A stretch of 64,000 nt of DNA, taken from Vicinamibacterales bacterium. GTDB lineage: Bacteria; Acidobacteriota; Vicinamibacteria; Vicinamibacterales; UBA2999. The notes under the pieces are model-generated. The model was not told the origin of the DNA. It searched no databases and saw nothing but the letters and a program-made list of their open reading frames with translations. Shown piece by piece: positions 1,502 to 40,625 of the stretch (within the stretch, counting starts at the first letter, position 1; each line of letters starts with the position of its first letter). The position numbers were made by a program, and so were the translations under genes. The stretch lies in the NCBI GenBank assembly GCA_041394685.1, contig JAWKHU010000038.1:130087-194086 (forward strand), read 5' to 3'.

Positions 1502-3891
1502 TCGCCCCGCAACGCGTCAGCGGGCGCCACGCGGCTGGCGCGCGCCGCGGGCCAGGCACACGCCAGCGTGGCAATGGCGACGACCACGACGGTGACGCCG
1601 GCATAGGTGAGTGTGTCGGTCGGCGCCACGCCGTAGAGCAGGCCCGACAGGACGCGTCCCACTGCCAACGCGCCGACGAGCCCCGCGGCAACACCGACGA
1701 CGGCGGGCCGGAGGCCATACCAGAGCATGAGCGCCACCACCTCGCGGCGGCGTGCGCCGAGTGCCATGCGGACGCCAATCTCGCGGGACCGCTGCGTCAC
1801 TGCGTAGGCCACCACCCCGTAGATGCCCACTGCCGCCAGGGTGACCGCCAGCAGCGCGAAGACGCCGATGAGGAACAGGTAGAAGCGGGGACGCGCCAGC
1901 GCGGCCTCTTCGAGCGCCGACAGCGTGCCGGGGAAGACGAGGGGCAGGCGTGCGTCGCGGCGGCGGACGACATCGCGGGCGGACGCGAGCACCTGAGCCG
2001 CCGGCAGCTGGCTCTGGACGACGAAGGTGACGGCACGCGTGCCGGCCTGGGCGTGTGGGACGGCCAACTCGGGGTCGGACTCGGCCTGGAGCCGCTGGGA
2101 CCGCACGTTGGCGGCCACGCCGACGATCTCGATCGGGTCGGTCGTGCCGAGGCGGATGGATCGGCCAACGGGATCCTCTCCTGGAAAGAACGTGTCGGCC
2201 AGCATACGGCTCACGATGGCCACGCGTGGAGCGGCGTCCCGATCGGCAGCGGTGAACGCGCGGCCGGACTCGATGGGGATCCCCATGACGGCGAAGTACC
2301 TGGCATCGACCACGCGGTAGAGGGCGTTGGGCATCTGGCCCGGGTCGGGCATCGGCCGATCGGTGCGGGTGAAATTGAGCACGTTCTCCGAGGGGCCGAG
2401 CGGAAGGCCCGCAATCCGCGCCACGGCGGACACACCCGGCATGGCCGCGAACGCGGTGTCGAGTTCGTCGAAGGTCCGCACGACCTGATCGTCCGGGTAG
2501 CGTGCCTGTGGAAGGGCCAGCAGGAACGTCGTGAGCCCCTCGGCGCGCCATCCCGGATCGATCCGCTGCTGCGCCGCGAGGCTCCGCCACAGGAGGCCGG
2601 CGCCGAGCAGCAGGAGGATCGAGAGTGCCACTTCGATGGTGAGCAGACCCGCGCGGCCGCGTCCCGGCCCCGATACCTGCCCTCGGTGGCCGAGGACGGC
2701 AGCCAGGGGCACCCGCGACAGCCGCAGCGACGGGCCGAAGCCGAAGAGCATGGTGGTCAGCGCGACGAGACCGAGCGCGAACACGAACGCCGGACCGTCG
2801 AACGCGATCTCGTCCAGGCGCGGCAGGTCCGGCGGGGCCAGCCACCGCAGCACGTCCACGCCCCACGCCGCGACGATGAGGCCGGCCGCGCCGCCGCCGA
2901 GCGCCAGCACGAAGTTCTCGGTGAGGAGGTAGGACACGACACCGCGGCGACCCGCGCCGAGTGCGGTCCGCACCGCCAGCTCGTTCTGCCGCGCGGCGCC
3001 TCGCACGAGCACGAGGTTGGCCACGTTGGCACAGGCGATGAGGAGCACCATCGCGACGGCACCGAGCAGGACGAGCACCGCCAGCCGCACGTCGCCCACC
3101 GTCCGCTCGTGCAGGGTCGTGACGTCCACGGTGACGTTCGCGTTGGCGTTCGGATACTCCGCTTCGAGCGCGCCGGCGATCGCCGTCAGCTCCGCCCGTG
3201 CCTCGTCCACCGTGGTGCCGTCAACGAGCCGCGCGATGCCGTTGGTGTAGTCACACGCCCGGCCGCAGTTCTCGTCGTCGTTCGCGAGCGGCATCCAGAG
3301 CTGGGCGCCCTCGGGGAAGTCGAAGCCCCGCGGCGCCACGCCCACGATGGGCCTCGGGCGTCCGCTCACCTCCACGACCTGCGAGAGCACGTCGGCTCGG
3401 CCGCCGAGCCGTTCCTGCCAGAACGCGTAGCTGACGACGATCGCCTCGGGCCCTCCGGCGCGATCCTCGCCGGCCGTGAACTCGCGGCCGACGACCGGGG
3501 CCGAGCGGAAGACGTGGAAGAAGTCCGTCGTCACCACGGCGGCATCGACGACCTCGGCGTCGCCCAGGTTGGTGACGATGAAGCGCGAACGAGCCCAGAG
3601 GGCCATGGACTGGACGGAGTGCGCCTGCTGCTTCCAGTCCAGGTAGTTGAGGTGGGAGACCGACCCGCTGACGGCGCGCTCGCCGCTGCCCTTCGTCACC
3701 TGTCCGATTGTGATCAGCCGGCTCGAGTCCGGGTACGGCAACGGCTTGACCAGCACCACGTAGGCGACGCTGAACAGGGCGGTGGTGGCGCCCACGCCCA
3801 GTGCGAGCGTCAGCACGGCAACCAGGGTGAAGGCGCGGTTGCGCATCAGCGTCCGGATGGCGACCTTGAGGTCCTGGCGAAGGCGGTCCAT
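1498..3891 (-). CDS. ADOP-family duplicated MacB/FtsX-like ABC permease (orphan, no adjacent ATPase)
   Basis: 836-aa ORF; the likely start is MDRLRQDLKVAIRTLMRN at 3891. An N-terminal TM is followed by a MacB-type periplasmic domain and an FtsX 4-TM module, then a second copy of the module ending in AARASRVAPADALRGD. Confidence 0.85.
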   Translation of the reverse strand: MDRLRQDLKVAIRTLMRNRAFTLVAVLTLALGVGATTALFSVAYVVLVKPLPYPDSSRLITIGQVTKGSGERAVSGSVSHLNYLDWKQQAHSVQSMALWARSRFIVTNLGDAEVVDAAVVTTDFFHVFRSAPVVGREFTAGEDRAGGPEAIVVSYAFWQERLGGRADVLSQVVEVSGRPRPIVGVAPRGFDFPEGAQLWMPLANDDENCGRACDYTNGIARLVDGTTVDEARAELTAIAGALEAEYPNANANVTVDVTTLHERTVGDVRLAVLVLLGAVAMVLLIACANVANLVLVRGAARQNELAVRTALGAGRRGVVSYLLTENFVLALGGGAAGLIVAAWGVDVLRWLAPPDLPRLDEIAFDGPAFVFALGLVALTTMLFGFGPSLRLSRVPLAAVLGHRGQVSGPGRGRAGLLTIEVALSILLLLGAGLLWRSLAAQQRIDPGWRAEGLTTFLLALPQARYPDDQVVRTFDELDTAFAAMPGVSAVARIAGLPLGPSENVLNFTRTDRPMPDPGQMPNALYRVVDARYFAVMGIPIESGRAFTAADRDAAPRVAIVSRMLADTFFPGEDPVGRSIRLGTTDPIEIVGVAANVRSQRLQAESDPELAVPHAQAGTRAVTFVVQSQLPAAQVLASARDVVRRRDARLPLVFPGTLSALEEAALARPRFYLFLIGVFALLAVTLAAVGIYGVVAYAVTQRSREIGVRMALGARRREVVALMLWYGLRPAVVGVAAGLVGALAVGRVLSGLLYGVAPTDTLTYAGVTVVVVAIATLACAWPAARASRVAPADALRGD

Positions 3892-31136: not shown

Positions 31137-31880
31137 TCAGGGACTCTTGCGCCCGCCCGGGTAGTGCACCTGCCGGTCGTGGTTGATGGGCGACGCCAGC
31201 AGACGCCGCCGGTCAGCCGCCCGGCGCGGGCAAGCCCAGCGCCTGACCATCAACGTCTGCTCGAAGCGCGTGGCGCCCTCGTCCTCGAGGAACAGCCGCT
31301 CGTTGCCCGCCCGGGGTGATGAGGAGGTGGCCAGTTGGAGTAGTGCACTTCGCCCAGCGCGTAGGACACGCCCGCGTGGCTGCGATGTGGCGGCGATTCG
31401 CGTGCCCGGCCCGTCGGGGAAGCGCAGGCGAGGCGCCGCGCCGGATCGAGATTTCAGCAGGGCCTCCGGCCCCGGTGGTCGCCGTAGAACTCCGTGTAGG
31501 AGAGCTTGAGGCAGTCGTCGAGGCGTGGTTTCGTTCTGGAGGATCTCGACCGCCGAGGCCAGCAGGCCCGGCACGCGGGTCGGGAAGCCGTTCCGGCAGA
31601 GGCCGGGCGCGTCCTGCAGGAGCATGTCGTCCTCGAAGAACGCCGCGATCTCCGCGTCGGTCTGCTGCGCAACGTGTGGCGCACCAGGCGCGGCCGCCCA
31701 TGATGCCCAGTTGCCGTCGCTCACGCGCGAACCTGTAGCGCGCCGCCAGCTCGCGGTTGGCCGTGTGCCGACTCGTCGGTCGAGCTGTCGAGCAGGATGC
31801 GGCGCGCCGCCTGCGACGAGCGCGGGCTCGACGGCCGACGCGCTCGAACCATCGCGCGAGCTGCGCCGGCGCGTCGGCGA
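31137..31880 (-). pseudogene. Hypothetical protein, fragmented over several frames (weak call)
   Basis: Coding-like pieces are ILADAPAQLARWFERVG, TANRELAARYRFAR, SDGNWASWAAAPGAPHVAQQTDAEIAAFFEDDMLLQDAPG, LDDCLKLSYTEFYGDH and the end ...PINHDRQVHYPGGRKSP. No family recognised. Confidence 0.3.
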
Positions 31881-31883
31881 GGA

Positions 31884-34690
31884 TTTACACCGCGAGATGT
31901 CCTGAGGCCGCCTCGACGGCCGGGGCCGGCGTCACCCGCGTGCCGCGCTTCACCCGGCACGTCCATGCCGCCGGCGCGAAAGCAGGTCCGCGGCCAACGG
32001 TCGAGCTCGTGCTCCCGGCCGACGGCCTCGAAGTCGCGGTCCGTGATCTCACACCAGTTCCACAGCCGGCCGCGCATCGTCTGCTCGAAGGTGTCGGTCG
32101 AGGCCGCGTAGTCGTGGGCCATGACCAGATCGCCGGTCTTCAGGTACGGCGCCAGGCGCGTCACGTCCCCGAGCTTGTCCGGGCCGTCGCACACGAGCAG
32201 CGTGATGCCGGGCCCCTGGATCTCGCGGGCGATCTCGGCGGCGGCAAATGGCTCGGCGACGTCCCGGCGACGCGCGTCCACATCCAGCGGCTCGAACAGC
32301 GCGCGCGCCGCCGTGTCGTGCACGCTGCGATCGACGGTGACGAACCGGGCGCCGGTGACGCGCGCGTACAGGTGGAAGAGCACGGTGAGACCGCCGACGC
32401 CCGTGCCCAGTTCCACGATCCGCGCCACGCGACGTCCCTCGTCCTCCAGCGTCCGCAGGAGGCGATCGATGGCGAGGATGGCGTGCCGGTTCTGCATCAT
32501 CGGCAGGCCGAAGAACGTGGTGTGGCCGCGCTCGACGTCGTCCGGGACCTCGATGGGGTCCGCCTGCGCGGTGCGCACGGGAAACGGCACGACCTCGACC
32601 GCGCGCCGTTCCGGCGCCTGGCGTCGCCCGGCTGCCCGGCCGGCGAGGAGATCCTGGAAGAACGGTCCCAGCAGGCCATCGCGCTCGACGAGGTAGTGCG
32701 CGTACCGCGACGGCTCCCGGTACGCGAGCACGGTGAACAGGCTCTCCTCGGTGCCCATGAGCCCGCGCGCCAGCGTGTCGCGCCGGAGCGCCTCGAACTG
32801 CGCCTCCACCGCCGGAATCTCCTCCACGCGTCCACCGAAGAAGCCGCCGCGAACCACGCGGTCCACCATGGACACGCCTGCCAGCGCCGCGAGCGCGGGA
32901 CGTGGGAAGCCGTGTATCTCGTCACCGTCCGGGTAGGGATACTCCACCCAGAGGAAGGGGCCCGCGGCGTCGGCCAGGCGGCCGGCCAGCGCCGGCGCCT
33001 CGAACACGGCGCCGGGCACCGTGTGCACGAGGCCGGCGTCCACCCAGAACAGGTGACTGGCGCCGAAGGCGTTCGCGCGCGCGGCCTCGGCCAGCCAGCG
33101 CATCTTCGAGAAGACGAGCGCGTTGTAGTGCGCCAGGGCGGCCTGCGGACTGTCGGCCAGCCAGCCGGCCTGCGCGAGCCAGTTCGCGTCGGCCCGAATG
33201 CGCTGGATGTCGGCAAAGCCGTCCCCGGCCTCGAGATCCTCGGGCCGGACGAGCTCGAGCCGCGTGTTGGAGGGGTGCCGGTGCCGCCACACCAGGGCTT
33301 CGAGCCGCGGTTCGGCGTACACCACCATGGGCAGCGGCGTCTCGAGCAGTTGCTCGAAGAGCGGCAGGTAGTGCGCCTCGAAGGACCGGCCGAAGCCGCC
33401 GCCGAGGGCCTCGCGGCCCAGGTCCACGAGCGCGGTCACCAGGGTGACGGGCGGGTGGAGCGGCAGCACCGGCCCGTCGATGCGCTCGAGCCAGCCGCGT
33501 GTGTCGCTGACCGGCCACACCGTCCAGCTCGCCGGCGTGCGGTCGGTCTCGAAGGCACAGCGGATGACGGCGTGCGCGCCCGCATCCGCCAGCAGCGCGC
33601 GCACGCCCTCGCGGTCCACGTCCTGCCGCACGATCTCCAGGCCGTGCGCGTCGTGTACGCCGACGTACCAGAAGTGATAGTCGTGCACGTCGGCCGGCAG
33701 CCGGCGCTTCTCGATGGCCAGGTCGAGCGCGTAGCCGCGGATGCGGTCGGCCCAGCCCTCGTCCGCCGGCGGGTTCGGCGGCTCGAAGCCCGCGCGGGTG
33801 TACTCCTGCGCGCGACGCCGCGAGATGCTGACGCCCGCATACGCCTCGTACTCGTCGAACGTCCGCGCGACACCCAGCCCCAACCGCCCCGGCTCCGGCT
33901 GCGCCAGGAAGGCGGCCACCTTGTCGAGGCTGGCCCGATCGCGCGCGTGCCACGCCATCTCCACCTCGGGACCGCCGTCGTGGTCGGTCCAGTGCTTGTG
34001 CGGACGATAGGCGCGCGTGTACTCGTGCCAGACGATGACGTGGCGGGGGTGGAAGAGGTCGTAGCCGTGCGTGAAGGCGCGCACGGCCAGGGTGATCTCC
34101 TCACCCGTGAAGTAGAGGTCCGGGTCGTACGGCACGTCCTCGACGAAGCGGCCGGGGGCGAACAGGAAGTGCGCCGAGAGGAAGCGGGCGCGGGCCGGGC
34201 GAGACAATCGCTGCCAGTCGCGCAGCTCGCCGGGCCGGAAGAGGATGATGCCCTCGCTGGTGAACCGATCGAAGTTCATCTGCATGGGGACGTGCTCGCG
34301 CGCGTCCTCGTGCTCGGGATCGAACGGTGTCGCGGAGGTGGTCAGGATGGGCCGATCGGACGGGCACGATCGAGCTCGTCGATCGCCAGCTCGTCCCACC
34401 CGTCCGCGAAGCGGTGGTGCGAGTCCAGCTGCAGGTAGTAGTCCTCGCCCGCGTAGCGACCCATGATCTCGGCGCGCGCCCAGCACGCGCCGCGGCTGGC
34501 CTGCCAGGGACGTCGATGATGCGGAACCGGCCGTCCGCCGTCCACGGCAGGGGCGCCTCGTCGGCGCCGTGCTGCCAGCAGACGCCGAAGCGCAGGCGCT
34601 CGGGATGCCGGGCGCGCGCGTGCAATCCTCCACCGTCGGCACGAGCTGCGGGTCGCGATACGCCGCAATCGAGACGAAGATGGTCCGCAC
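31884..34690 (-). pseudogene. Three-domain enzyme: GlcNAc-transferase-like (PF11397-type) + HtrL/YibB-like + CmcI/class I methyltransferase-like; at least 3 N-terminal frame breaks; 3' end uncertain (31884 TAA or 31721 TGA)
   Basis: A GTG start follows a GAGGAGG RBS that overlaps the upstream stop. The N-domain pieces are IFVSIAAYRDPQLVPTVEDC, RLRFGVCWQHG and YYLQLDSHHRFADGWD, spread over three frames. The middle domain has VTLVTALVDLGRE...HLFWVDAGLVH. The C-terminal domain has IVELGTGVGGLTVLFHLYA...LLVCDGPDK. Confidence 0.6.
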
Positions 34691-34698
34691 CGTCCTCC

Positions 34699-36624
34699 TC
34701 AGAAGACGTCCACGCGCATGTCGGCCGTCGCCGGACCGATGCCCGCCACGTTCATCGCCCGCACGCGCACGTAGTAGGTGCCCGGAGGCGCGTTGGCGGC
34801 CACCAGCGACTCCTGCGGCGTCATCATCGTGCCCACGTCCGTGAGACCGATCTGCGATCCCACCTCGACGATGTAGTTGTCAACGGGACCGCCGGCCGAT
34901 GGTGCCTGCCACGCAAGCGTGACGGTGCGGCCCGTCAGCAGGTGTGTGAGGCCGTCGGGCGCGCCCGGCGGGGCCACGCTGGTGGACAGGGTGACGGCGA
35001 CGTCGTTGGAGGGCGCACCGGTACCGCAGGCGTTGAGCCCGCGCACGCGCAGGTAATAGGTCCCCGGAGGGCCCGTCGCCACCAGCGCCGGCAGGCCACC
35101 GATGTTGCGGCGGCCGTGCTCGACGCCGCCCGGCGTGGCTCCCACTTCGAGCAGGTAGGCAGTGGCTCCAGGCGCGGCGCCCAGTGCGAGCGACATCTGC
35201 AGGCCGTCCACCGTGGCCGCCAGCGGTCCGGGCGCCTGCGGCTCCGACATGCACCCGGTAGCGCCCAGCGTCACCAGCAGCTCGCTCGATGGCGGGCCGA
35301 GCCCGTATGCGTTTCGTCCCCGCACGCGCACGTAGTAGGTGCCGGCCGGCGCGTCGGCGTCGAAGGTGGTCGCCGCTCCCGCCGTGGCCTGGACCAGCAG
35401 GTTGCTTGCTCCAGCCACCGACCCCGCCTCGATGATGTAGTCGGCCGGAAGGCCGCCGGTGGTCGGCGGCAGCCACGACAGCCGCACGCGGAACGTCGTT
35501 GCGGTTGGCGAGTCGCCCATGCGGGCGATGCGCCCCTGCGCAGGCTGGAGCTGGTCGAACCCGAACGTGCGAATCGCGAAGCCCCAGGCCGCGTCTGCAC
35601 CAGGCGCGGTCACCGCCGCATCGCCTTGCTGACCCGCGACGGCATAGGACAACAGGAGGGGCGCACCGGGCACGCGCGAGAAGGTGGGTGACGGCGTCGG
35701 CGTAGGTATTGGAGTCGCCGACGGCGTCGGCGTCGGTACGGGAGTCGCCGACGGCGTCGGTGTCGGCACCGGGCTGGCCGATGGCGTCGGTGTCGGCACC
35801 GGACTCGCCGATGGCGTCGGCGTCGGCACCGGACTCGCCGATGGCGTCGGCGTCGGCACCGGACTCGCCGATGGCGTGGGGGTCGGCACCGGACTCGCGG
35901 AGGGCGTCGGTGTAGGCACCGGGCTCGCTGACGGCGTCGGCGTCGGCGTGACGTCGAAGTGATTGAACACGAGCGCGGGGCCCGCCTGCCCACCGTTCTC
36001 GCGGGAGGCCAGGAACATGCCGCCGTCGCCGCTGGTGGTCGTCCGGCGGATCCGGAACGTCGTGGCGCCGCCGTTGACCAGGGCGGTGACGTCGAAGCTC
36101 AGCTCTCCCGGGCCGGTGTAGCCGCCCTCGGCGCCCGGGGGCGTCCCGGCCGCCGTGTTGTTGAAGGTCGCGTCTCCCTCCGTCTGCGTCGTCGAACACG
36201 CTTCGGCCGTGATTGTCTCGAACGTGGGCGTGAAGTCGATGACCACCTGCGTCACCAGCGTGACCTCGTCGGCCGGGCCGTAGGTGGACAGCAGGGTCGA
36301 GACGGCGGTGGGGTCGAAGATCACCAGCGCATCGGCGCTGTCGGCGCCCTGCACCTCCACCGTCAGCTGCCCGTCGGTGCCGAAGTTGGTATCGGGCTGG
36401 TCCGACCGCAGCGTGGTGTCGCCGGCCACGTCGATCTGCCGCAGGACGGCGTGCGCGGCCGTCACGCCGAAGAGCGGCCCCAGGGCCGCACCGCCGACGA
36501 TGCGACTGAGGTAGCTGACGCCGCCAGAGGCGGTGAAGCCGGTGCCGCCGACGAGCCGCTGCACGAAGCCGCGACGGGACAGCGGATAGCGAGGCCGGGG
36601 ATCGCCGGGGCCGGATGTCTCCAT
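34699..36624 (-). CDS. Tat-exported DNRLRE-domain protein with Pro/Thr/Ser decapeptide linker and three FN3 domains
   Basis: Intact 641 aa. Twin-arginine motif is [17 protein letters not shown]-like motif is [21 protein letters not shown]. There are nine [10 protein letters not shown] repeats. Three FN3 modules carry [13 protein letters not shown] signatures. Confidence 0.8.
35683..35949 (-). repeat. In-frame 30-bp tandem repeat x9 encoding (TPTPSA[ST]P[VI]P)n linker
   Basis: Read directly. Several units differ only by synonymous changes (gcgagt versus gccagc for Ala-Ser) while the peptide stays identical. Confidence 0.9.
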
Positions 36625-36772
36625 GGTCGGGCGTATTATCGGACGCCGCGCGGACGGACGGCAGGGCCTCGGCGCGCGCGCCGGAGAATTCAGTGCAAGC
36701 CACTTCGGACGCCGCCCGACGGCCCGCCGTCGATCATCCCTTGCGTCGAGGCCGGGGTTCGCAGTGCGCTCT

Positions 36773-36930
36773 GTGACCGTGACGTTCGTCGTTCATCACG
36801 CGCATCGGGCCCATCACCACCGTTCCACGAACGGCCCGGCCGGACTGCGCGCGTAACACGACGAAGACATTCACGACGATTCGTTTCACGCGAAGGCCCG
36901 CTGGGAAACCAGCGGGCCTTTGTCGTTTCT
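36773..36930 (+). promoter_or_regulatory. Candidate his-operon leader: His-rich leader ORF (GTG 36773 or 36779 to TAA 36854..36856) plus terminator = putative attenuator
   Basis: The codons read GTG ACC GTG ACG TTC GTC GTT CAT CAC GCG CAT CGG GCC CAT CAC CAC CGT ... TAA, giving (M)[26 protein letters not shown] with 6 His in 9 codons. A small hairpin CCGTTC-CAC-GAACGG (36820..36834) follows, then the terminator. It lies 22 nt upstream of the hisI ATG. Confidence 0.6.
36893..36930 (+). terminator. Intrinsic terminator hairpin upstream of hisI
   Basis: A 12-bp stem AAGGCCCGCTGG / CCAGCGGGCCTT with a GAAA tetraloop, followed by TTGTCGTTTCT. Confidence 0.7.
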
Positions 36931-36951
36931 GGCCGGCAACCGGGAGTGGTT

Positions 36952-37312
36952 ATGGATTTCAGCAAGCTGGACGGGCTCATCCCCGCCGTCGTGCAGGACC
37001 GCACGAGCGGCGAGGTGTTGATGGTGGGTTTCATGAACGACGAGGCCTGGGCGATCACGCAGCGCACCGGGTACGTCACCTTCTTCAGCCGCACGCGCAA
37101 CACGCTCTGGACCAAGGGCGAGACCTCTGGCAACCGCCTGGCGGTAGCGGCAGATCTGGACCGACTGCGACGACGACACGGTGCTGGTGAAGGTGGACCG
37201 GGAAGGCGACGGAAACGTGTGCCACACCGGGCAGCGCTCGTGCTTCTACACGGAAGTGCCGCTGACCGGCGGCGGGCAGCCGGCGGCGGGCGCGGCGGGA
37301 GCAGCCCGATGA
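36952..37312 (+). CDS. hisI: Phosphoribosyl-AMP cyclohydrolase, monofunctional (one frame break near 37150)
   Basis: GGGAG RBS. The N-terminal part is [61 protein letters not shown]. In the next frame it continues [29 protein letters not shown]. The stop TGA overlaps the hisG ATG (ATGA). Confidence 0.8.
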
Positions 37313-38194
37313 AGCTGCGGCTCGGCATTCCCAAGGGCTCGCTCGAGCAGGCCACCGTCCAGCTCTTCCAGCGGGCGGGCTTCCAGGTGCTGGTCTCGTC
37401 GCGCTCCTACTTCCCCTCCATCGACGACCCCGAGATCGAGTGCATGCTGATCCGCGCGCAGGAGATGGCCCGCTACGTGGCCGACGGCATCCTCGACGCG
37501 GGCCTCACCGGCTTCGACTGGATTCGCGAGCACGAGATCGGCCACCCCGAGCAACCACCGCTGGTGCCGTCGCCGACCTCATCTACTCGAAACAGAGCTT
37601 CGGCAAGGTGCGCTGGGTGCTGGCCGCGCCGGAGGCTCCCCGTTCCAGACGGCAAAGGACTTCGAGGGCAAGCGCATCGCGACCGAGCTGGTGCGCGTGA
37701 CACGCGACTACTTCCAGCGCCACGGCGTGAACGTGGACGTCGAGTTCTCGTGGGGCGCCACCGAGGTCAAGCCGCCCGTGCTGGCCGACGCCATCGTCGA
37801 GGCCACCGAAACCGGGTCCACCCTGCGGGCCAACCGGCTCCGCATCCTGGACACGATCCTGGAGTCCAACACCCAGCTGATTGCCAACGACACAGCCATG
37901 GCCGACGACTGGAAGCGGACGAAGATCGAGAACCTCGCACTGCTGCTCAAGGCCGCGATAGAGGCACAGGGCCGCGTGGGGCTGATGCTCAACGTGCCGA
38001 AGGCGAGCCTCGACGAGGTGCTGGGCCTGCTGCCCGCCCTGCAGCGGCCCACGGTGAGCGCGCTCAGCGACCCCGAGTGGGTGGCCGTCAACACCATCCT
38101 GGAAGAGAAGACCGCGCGCGACCTGATCCCCAAGCTGAAGGCCGCCGGCGGACAAGGCATCGTGGAGTATCCGCTGACGAAGATCGTCATGTAG
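37309..38194 (+). CDS. hisG: ATP phosphoribosyltransferase, long form (two single-base frame breaks near 37540 and 37640)
   Basis: The protein is [20 protein letters not shown]...[15 protein letters not shown], then [22 protein letters not shown], then [25 protein letters not shown]...GLMLNVPK...EYPLTKIVM. The length of 886 nt equals 888 minus 2. Confidence 0.8.
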
Positions 38195-39551: not shown

Positions 39552-40625
39552 CGAGGATACAGGGAGTGCCCGACCTGGGACCTGGGCTCAGGCTGCACCT
39601 GAACGAGAACACCGGCGGCTGTTCGCCGCGCGTGGTGGAGGCCGTCCGCGGATTCACCGCGGAGCGCCTGGCGCTGTGCCCGGACTTCACCGACGCCGTC
39701 ATGGAAACGGCCGCCTTCCTCGGGGTGGACGCCGACCGCCTGGTGCTCACCAACGGGTTGGACGAGGGCATCCTGCTCGCGTCGATCGCCTACACGGTGC
39801 CGCGCGCGCCGGAAGCACTCGTCGAGCTCGGCGCCCCGCTCGTGGTGCTGTCGGGTGTGCCGGAGGTCGTCGTGGCGCTGCCGACCTTCGAGCCGTACTG
39901 CACGCAGCCAGGGGCATGGGGGCGCGCGTCGTCTCGGTGCCCGCCGCGCCCGACTACGCGTTTCCACTCGAGGGCATGCTGCGGGCCATCACGCCGAACA
40001 CGCGGCTCGTCTACGTGAACTCTCCGAACAACCCCACCGGCCAGGTGGTCCCCGCCGACGCCATTCGCGCGGTGGCGGCCGCGGCCGGCCACGCTCTGGT
40101 GTTCGTGGACGAGGCGTAGCCCACGACTTCGCCGGCGAGAACTTCCTCGCCGAGGCGGCCGCGTTCCCCAACGTGCTGATCGGACGGACGTTCTCGAAGG
40201 CGTTCGGCCTGGCGGGCATGCGCGTCGGGGTGATGGCGGCGTCGCCGGCCGTGCTGGAGCCCATCCGGCGCGTCATGCCGCTCTTCAACCTGAACGTGGT
40301 CGCCGTGGCGGCGCTGCGGGCGGCGTTGGCCGATCCCGACTACCGGGCGTGGTATCTCGAGCAGGCCGCGGCGTCGAAGGCCCTCGTCTACGAGACGTGC
40401 GAGCGCCTCGGTCTTCGCTGCTGGCCGAGCGCGGCCAACTTCGTCCTGATCGATGGCGGCGACCGGGCAAGAGCGCTCGTCGCCGGCCTGATCGCGCGCG
40501 GCGTGTTCGTTCGCGACCGCACCGCCGATCCCTCGTGCCCGAACTGCTTCCGGCTGACGGCCGGCGTGGTCGAGCACACCCGGCGTGCCGTGGAGGCACT
40601 GGAGGCCGTATGCGCCGCGGCGTGA
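39548..40625 (+). CDS. hisC: Histidinol-phosphate aminotransferase (two single-base frame breaks near 39900 and 40115)
   Basis: ATGA overlap with hisD. Pieces are [25 protein letters not shown], and in a third frame [15 protein letters not shown] (the PLP-Lys motif). The length of 1078 nt equals 1080 minus 2. Confidence 0.8.

Follow-up and report, generated by a model that had tools for sequence, protein, structure and literature searches.

How is the expression of the histidine biosynthesis (his) genes matched to the supply of their product in Acidobacteriota? Acidobacteria are among the most abundant bacteria of soils, and little is known of the regulation of their genes. The question is raised here by a stretch of 64,000 nucleotides (nt), called the window throughout, from a Vicinamibacterales bacterium (Acidobacteriota; UBA2999; assembly GCA_041394685.1, contig JAWKHU010000038.1, positions 130,087–194,086 of the forward strand), in which a his operon is preceded by a short open reading frame (ORF) rich in histidine codons and by a GC-rich hairpin with a T-rich tail. 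Comparative analysis indicates that this element is very probably a histidine-responsive, ribosome-mediated leader-peptide transcription attenuator of hisIGDCBH…F, and that it belongs to a family conserved across the Vicinamibacterales. Positions given below are those of the window, and features lie on its plus strand unless stated otherwise.

The operon is complete, starts at position 36952 and is organized in the order hisI-G-D-C-B-H-…-F. The product of the first gene matches the Pfam family PRA-CH (HisI) with E = 1.1e-30, and the matches that follow are, in order, HisG, Histidinol_dh, aminotransferase, IGPD, GATase (glutamine amidotransferase) and His_biosynth. A preliminary description of this DNA had placed the ribosome-binding site and ATG of hisI directly after the putative attenuator, at the end of a 327-bp (base pair) upstream region, and both placements hold: the site GGGAG (36942–36946) and the ATG at 36952 form a feature at 36942–36954, and 327 bp separate hisI from an upstream gene that begins at 36624 on the minus strand. 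As this neighbour runs divergently, the spacer is a divergent promoter region, and a terminator lying in the leader cannot be that of the neighbouring gene.

The leader ORF occupies 36779–36856 and comprises 25 codons, from a GTG to the stop codon TAA at 36854–36856. Between 36794 and 36820, six of nine consecutive codons specify histidine (His), the run reading CAT CAC GCG CAT CGG GCC CAT CAC CAC (HHAHRAHHH). These regulatory His codons, which make up region 1 of the element, are the predicted site of ribosome stalling. The run is exactly where it had first been reported, and no other stretch of nine codons in the 64 kb, whichever of the six frames is read, has six or more His; dinucleotide-preserving shuffles of the 64 kb yielded such a run in 0 of 100 cases. 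The start codon, on the other hand, had to be moved. The frame is also open from GTG 36773, the codon originally chosen, but it is the second GTG, at 36779, that relatives conserve, whereas 36773 is not conserved and sits in the promoter discriminator region between the -10 box and the start.

Relatives were collected with the frameshift-repaired HisI as query and with one genome per species; 568 were found, and the best 80 were retrieved. Their titles are nearly all those of Vicinamibacterales or of unclassified Acidobacteria/Acidobacteriota metagenome-assembled genomes (MAGs), with a few other labels, and bear out the acidobacterial lineage that had been guessed for the window. Many of these 80 are long-read MAGs, and their HisI proteins are 73–92% identical to that of the window. 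One of the 80 loci includes only 27 nt of upstream sequence, which leaves 79 in which a leader could be sought. All 79 carry a short ORF with five to seven His per nine codons, ending 68–261 nt before hisI; the total number of His codons per leader is five to nine, and typical leader peptides are MSFVHHAHRSHHHRSQNGTAGVCA, (M)FALHHVHHVHHHAAFGPAGLHV and MFSLLHHAHHHHGHPAVRQDCAR. The start is kept as GTG or ATG, an in-frame stop is found closely upstream of it in many relatives, and in most leaders the ORF terminates at the end of the segment defined below as region 2. A scan of metagenomes added two further relatives with 86–89% DNA identity. Among 81 aligned leaders, codons 7, 9, 12, 13 and 14 are His codons in 68–79, and every conserved one of them flips between CAC and CAT (codon 9 is CAT in 49 and CAC in 30; another is CAC in 44 and CAT in 33). 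Length differences inside the His-codon stretch of the alignment are mostly multiples of three. Such synonymous changes and in-frame gaps argue that selection acts not only on the RNA sequence but also on its decoded product. A covariance model of the family detects exactly one strong copy per locus, with scores of 56.8–140.4 bits, the window copy reaching 132.8 bits (E = 2e-35).

The ORF is followed, in the window, by an intrinsic terminator (36893–36928) identified by folding and by conservation. Its 12-bp stem is formed by AAGGCCCGCTGG (36893–36904) and CCAGCGGGCCTT (36909–36920) around a GAAA loop, and its tail is UUUGUCGUUU, the stretch 36919–36928 reading TTTGTCGTTT. The GC stem, the loop and the T-rich tail are thus present as initially noted, the stem beginning 36 nt past the stop codon. 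The folding energy is -33.5 kcal/mol for the terminator hairpin (z = -6.85) and -76.1 kcal/mol for the whole leader (z = -6.76). A GC hairpin followed by a U-tract is found in 80 of 80 leaders, with the core CCCGC/GCGGG and a median energy of -21.7 kcal/mol, and one pair of the stem is CG in 42 leaders and GC in 38. Eight or nine of the first ten tail bases are U in 67 of the 80.

The leader upstream of the terminator can fold on itself. The His-codon segment CACGCGCAUCGGGCC (region 1, with the 5' arm at 36797–36811) forms helix 1:2 together with GGCCGGACUGCGCGCG (region 2, at 36838–36853), the segment that closes the ORF, and inside this helix lies a smaller hairpin, CCGUUC-CAC-GAACGG (36820–36834). 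The small hairpin, which had already been noticed in the window, covaries strongly in the relatives (one pair is UA in 34 and CG in 25, another CG in 44 and GC in 21); about 80% of its alignment cells are paired, and it is possibly a pause hairpin. Across the relatives, 80.7–87.8% of the cells of helix 1:2 are paired, with compensation between CG and UA, as in a pair that is CG in 53, UA in 13 and UG in 11 leaders. When the sequences are aligned by MAFFT alone, helix 1:2, the inner hairpin and the terminator all have about 80% of their cells paired. In the covariance-model alignment, the helices of the terminated state have 87.1% of cells paired, compared with at most 43.6% in slid controls, and 170 double-change cells, compared with 78 ± 8 in shuffles, none of 500 of which reached the observed number. 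As the latter alignment was fitted to the terminated-state structure, the one made by MAFFT gives the fairer measure. The outer helices of the minimum-energy fold of the window (GUGA/UCAC and GUUCGUCGU/ACGACGAAG) were dropped, only 22–52% of their cells being paired. The alignment of orthologous leaders, proposed as a check in the preliminary description, therefore finds the His codons and the ORF conserved, and the hairpin conserved with compensatory changes. Likewise, the three-part layout that had been likened to the hisL attenuators, taken as His-codon ORF, alternative pairings and a GC hairpin with U-tract directly ahead of the first his gene, is conserved in all 79 leaders.

For attenuation, the terminator must have a competitor. 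The preliminary description found no convincing antiterminator; one can now be drawn between the 3' end of the ORF and the left arm of the terminator. Region 2 (36835–36854), which ends at the stop codon, would serve helix 1:2 as its 3' arm and the antiterminator as its 5' arm, pairing either with region 1 or with region 3 (36888–36905). Region 3 consists of CACGCG, AAGGCCCGCUGG and G, and overlaps the entire left arm of the terminator. The hexamer GGCCCG at 36833–36838, which had been singled out as a duplicate of the left arm, does lie at the 5' end of region 2, with 36835–36838 inside the antiterminator arm; its part is nevertheless revised, because in the model the partner of region 2 is either region 1 or the terminator's left arm, and region 2 is no rival for the right arm. 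Folds were computed for the transcript up to the terminator loop, and no pairing was allowed from the 5' end through the 12 nt that follow the final His codon. This constraint mimics a stalled ribosome, in that the 5' stretch is masked and the 3' arm of the terminator is not yet made. Under it, 14 of 17 left-arm bases of the window pair with region 2 (-25.7 kcal/mol), and at least 60% of the left arm does so in 62 of 80 leaders; an alternative to the terminator helix, as the preliminary description had proposed to look for, is obtained under this constraint. In a covariance-model alignment not fitted to this helix, 79.6% of the antiterminator cells are paired, compared with 24–52% in slid controls; this percentage is attained by 6 of 500 shuffles, and the observed number of pair types by 3 of 500. 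The best evidence of co-variation comes from a swap test on six leaders with atypical terminators (L014, L017, L021, L024, L055 and L076), where region 2 of each leader binds its own left arm better than do 92–100% of the regions 2 taken from leaders with other terminator types (rank 0.00–0.08). The model thus contains a conserved antiterminator (36835–36854 with 36888–36905) that is exclusive of the terminator and has moderate statistical support.

The start of the transcript can be predicted from an equally regular promoter. In 72 of 78 relatives, TTGNNN (mostly TTGC..), a spacer of 17–19 nt (18 in 57), TANNNT and a gap of 9–11 nt (9 in 46) lead to an ATG or GTG, the leader start codon being ATG in 39 and GTG in 33. 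The window has TTGCGT as its -35 box at this place (36741–36746), as have its nearest relatives, L081 and L082; its -10 box (36765–36770) reads TGCGCT and aligns with TAGCCT of these two, while TACGCT, TACCCT, TAGGCT, TAGCCT and others are seen among the relatives. From the -10 box to the start codon, the window is also one base shorter. A -10 box usually lies about 7 nt from the transcription start, as for example 7 ± 1 nt in Corynebacterium (PMC3896937), so with a gap of 9–11 nt the first transcribed base should lie 0–3 nt ahead of the start codon, and would often be the G of a conserved GUC. The geometry of the promoter thus predicts a leaderless or almost leaderless messenger RNA (mRNA) for the leader. 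Such a start would agree with the lack of a Shine-Dalgarno sequence pointed out in the preliminary description: a 4-mer resembling one precedes only 6 of 72 leader starts, compared with 38 of 79 hisI starts. A simple consensus scan for promoters and terminators between 36000 and 38000 called nothing. In our reading, it missed the terminator because the stem is extended by G-U pairs into an interrupted T-run, and it missed the promoter because its criteria overlook the GC-rich -10 boxes of this lineage.

The sequence parts, their conservation and their covariation suggest a course of events for initiation, ribosome stalling, termination and the histidine response. Transcription would be driven by a sigma-70-type promoter (-35 at 36741, -10 at 36765) and would begin at GTG 36779 or no more than about 3 nt from it, and the 25-codon ORF would be translated as a leaderless message, independently of a Shine-Dalgarno sequence. 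With ample histidyl transfer RNA (His-tRNA), the ribosome would reach TAA 36854 and cover region 2, whereupon the terminator at 36893–36928 would form and the polymerase would stop before hisI. When charged tRNA-His is scarce, the ribosome would stall on the six His codons at 36794–36820 and region 1 would be kept from helix 1:2; the free region 2 would then pair with 36888–36905 before the right arm of the terminator exists, allowing read-through into hisI. If the leader is not translated at all, helices 1:2 and 3:4 would both form, with termination as the outcome. Classical attenuation requires the first ribosome to keep up with RNA polymerase. If the scheme is true, this coupling would here be achieved by direct loading of 70S ribosomes on the nascent 5' end, and not at a Shine-Dalgarno site.

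Several observations weigh against this scheme, and they concern both the antiterminator of the family and the copy found in the window. The antiterminator fold of the window is no better than that of shuffled sequences (z = -0.83; 39/200), and among the leaders the antiterminator duplex has a median z of -1.8 against composition-matched shuffles, with 42 of 80 loci at or below 5%. Its covariation is weak, both arms being nearly invariant, as would be expected if each arm pairs with two partners. In equilibrium folding with the ribosome mask, the terminator persists in most of the leaders shown, and the antiterminator emerges broadly only if the 3' arm is withheld, as it would be in the course of transcription. 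Anti-termination would therefore have to be kinetic, as it is in classical attenuators. As for the leaderless message, the 9 nt that separate -10 box and start codon point to a 5' untranslated region of 0–3 nt, which is not proof of a strictly leaderless start. The window copy departs further from its family. Its U-tract is interrupted and weaker than in the relatives, with seven U in the first ten tail bases, and it alone has a G in place of the conserved A at the second position of the -10 box. Moreover, the his genes that follow are broken. Compared with L081, L001 and L082, hisI has one additional base at 37147; compared with L081, hisG lacks one base at 37569 and another at 37631, and hisC lacks one at 39898 and has two additional bases at 40119, the frame being lost in each of the three genes. 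This copy may therefore be mis-sequenced or decaying.

The alternative that survives best follows from these defects: the attenuator family would be real, and the window copy would be inactive or decaying, with a crippled promoter and his pseudogenes. The -10 box fits it (TGCGCT, in contrast to TANNNT in 72 of 78 relatives and TAGCCT in the nearest ones), and so do the weakened U-tract and the frame-breaking indels of hisI, hisG and hisC. It is nonetheless rather unlikely. The leader ORF is intact, as are the two helices and the terminator, and the covariance-model score is near the top of the family. The bias of GC content with codon position is strong in the his genes and persists on both sides of each indel. 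In addition, the sites of the indels look like those of systematic sequencing error, and many of the relatives are themselves long-read MAGs. The insertions at 37147 and 40119 are in a repeated GTAGC context (GTAGCGG compared with GTA-CGG, and GTAGCCCAC compared with GTA--CCAC), and the deletions at 37569 and 39898 are at short homopolymers. The GC bias kept across the breaks and the GTAGC context of the insertions make us lean to an error of sequencing or assembly; the TGCGCT box could be either such an error or a weakened promoter. A profile of frame switches in GC content at third codon positions (GC3), tried as a gauge of the general proneness of the assembly to indels, was very noisy.

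A second alternative keeps histidine sensing by stalling but has it control translation or the stability of the mRNA, for instance through exposure of the hisI ribosome-binding site. Leaderless short ORFs of mycobacteria attenuate in this way (bioRxiv 10.1101/834739), and intrinsic terminators could be inefficient in Acidobacteria. What makes such a mode improbable in the present family is the position and shape of the hairpin. It does not include the hisI ribosome-binding site, and the spacing of U-tract and hisI start ranges between 7 and 198 nt among the leaders, with unrelated tandem repeats often filling the interval, a variability that fits termination and not the masking of a ribosome-binding site. 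The U-tract that follows the GC hairpin in all 80 leaders, with its eight or nine U in 67 of them, points in the same direction. The repeats in this spacer are short, mostly heptamers, and are found in many relatives with units that vary by genome, such as (GTCGGGA)x6.7, (CCCAAGC)x5.9 and (CGAACCG/GCGAATA)x~10; they occur at L004 (2894–2985), L026 (2911–2991), L002, L005, L006, L007, L012, L019, L038, L045, L046 and L068, and the window has none.

It could also be argued that the leader is an independent small gene, coding for a His-rich and perhaps metal-binding peptide or for a small RNA, with a constitutive terminator and a separate his promoter downstream. The unit does have its own promoter and terminator, and the distance of up to 198 nt between terminator and hisI in some relatives would accommodate another promoter. 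This interpretation is, however, very improbable. The unit is strictly linked to hisI, in 79 of 79 loci, and in several relatives only 7–30 nt lie between the U-tract and hisI, which leaves no space for a second promoter. The peptide outside the His codons is not kept as a protein but varies in step with RNA pairing: a change of GCG to GUG in region 1 (Ala to Val) is accompanied by a change of CGC to CAC in region 2 (Arg to His), so that RNA pairing explains the conserved peptide end 'PAGLR[AV]', whose amino-acid changes track the compensatory base changes. Finally, a plain small gene would have no need of the double complementarity of region 2, to region 1 and to the terminator's left arm. 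Least probable of all is an untranslated RNA switch (T-box-like or riboswitch) that would sense tRNA-His or histidine directly, the His codons being present by chance or serving as specifier triplets. T-box-like his leaders do occur in Firmicutes and possibly in Corynebacterium (PMC3896937), but neither the window nor 13 relatives gave an Rfam match at the gathering score (T-box and the His leader RF00514 included). The leaders also retain five to nine His codons in frame, which vary synonymously in the third base, and their indels are mostly in threes. Translation is further indicated by the conserved in-frame start, together with the stop at the end of region 2.

The nearest functional counterpart of the proposed attenuator is hisL of enterobacteria (RF00514). 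In both, a short ORF with His codons precedes the first his gene, and overlapping pairings 1:2, 2:3 and 3:4 are combined with an intrinsic terminator, the ribosome sensing charged tRNA-His (PMC3896937). The differences are nevertheless extensive. Seven consecutive His codons in hisL (PMC3896937) correspond here to six of nine, interrupted; the first gene is hisI here and hisG in the hisL system; the present leader has no Shine-Dalgarno sequence, and its promoter abuts the ORF; and the host belongs to the Acidobacteriota, with 71% GC. Nor is homology detectable in sequence or structure, as Rfam searched at E ≤ 10 over 36500–37100 returned neither His_leader nor T-box. The matches it did return at this threshold (sau-63, BcKCsr7 and the 3' hairpin of Thr_leader) were rejected as terminator-shaped chance matches. 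The element is thus apparently an independent, non-homologous addition to the classical leader-peptide attenuators.

Precedents for a leaderless leader peptide are found elsewhere. In Deinococcus deserti, 14 were predicted from mapped 5' ends, with the ORF at or 1 nt from the 5' end and upstream of genes for amino-acid biosynthesis or tRNA synthetases, and attenuation was proposed for them (PMC4007540). The present leaders are predicted to share this arrangement, their 5' ends being deduced from promoter geometry, and the phylum is different; the word 'histidine' does not appear in the main text of that paper (PMC4007540). The polycysteine ORFs of mycobacteria are leaderless, as is predicted for the present ones, and are likewise short and enriched for the codons of one amino acid; stalling in them reports its supply to the operon, but they have been shown to unmask a ribosome-binding site (bioRxiv 10.1101/834739), whereas in the present case the amino acid is histidine and the conserved GC hairpin with its U-tract, set at varying distances from hisI, suggests termination. 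In Bacillus, His leader peptides were predicted upstream of hisZ and of hisS paralogues (PMC2965389); like the present family, they combine a His-codon ORF with a premature terminator outside Proteobacteria and are based on comparative analysis only, though the lineage and the regulated genes differ. The same 2010 survey listed almost no predicted acidobacterial attenuators with an assigned function (PMC2965389).

Full-text searches of the openly accessible literature returned no description of an acidobacterial his leader. We would tentatively suggest that the present one is the first described family of amino-acid-sensing leader-peptide attenuators in Acidobacteriota, order-wide in Vicinamibacterales, independent of hisL and carried on a leaderless message with a 5'-terminal GUG or AUG. 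The mechanism itself is classical and the leaderless start is a twist with precedents in other bacteria, so the gain is one of breadth and annotation, and not of principle. It would give a clear regulatory assignment to the his operon of a whole order, and its 81 aligned members and working covariance model could seed a database family. It also appears to be a natural case in which textbook attenuation is joined to leaderless translation, and as such it could be used to probe the coupling of transcription and translation outside model organisms.

A number of features in the surroundings of the leader deserve mention. The divergent neighbour (34699–36624, minus strand) encodes a secreted-looking protein of 641 amino acids with a twin-arginine-like signal, a CBM96 module and a C-terminal fibronectin type III domain. 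The next ORF (31721–34879) lies in another frame and shares 180 nt with it, which may reflect one more frameshift. An ORF of 77 amino acids from ATG 36623 was dismissed, there being no coding GC3 signal in 36630–36810 and the relatives having stops close upstream of the leader start. Other His-rich windows of the 64 kb (+626, +17153 and +63791) were rejected as leaders. The first of them, VQHHHAHH at 626–652 on the plus strand, is within a long coding ORF (2–1501) and may correspond to the conserved His motif of HypF-type maturation proteins.

Additional weak matches of the covariance model are either the palindromic terminator read on the opposite strand or an unrelated terminator. The latter case is seen at L075 (214–301, plus strand), about 2.6 kb upstream of hisI, where a match of 27.8 bits is merely a GC hairpin with a T-run (GGCCCGCGACATAGTCGCGGGCTTTTTTGTTG); it suggests that intrinsic terminators of the same style are used elsewhere in these genomes. 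The start of hisI also varies among the relatives. In L023, L027, L028, L030, L031, L039, L040 and others, the tblastn match places HisI residue 1 on a CTG or CTC at locus position 3001. In this subgroup, an ATG is found two codons upstream (…CGATGACA|CTG), and the start of HisI probably lies a little upstream of the position used in the window.

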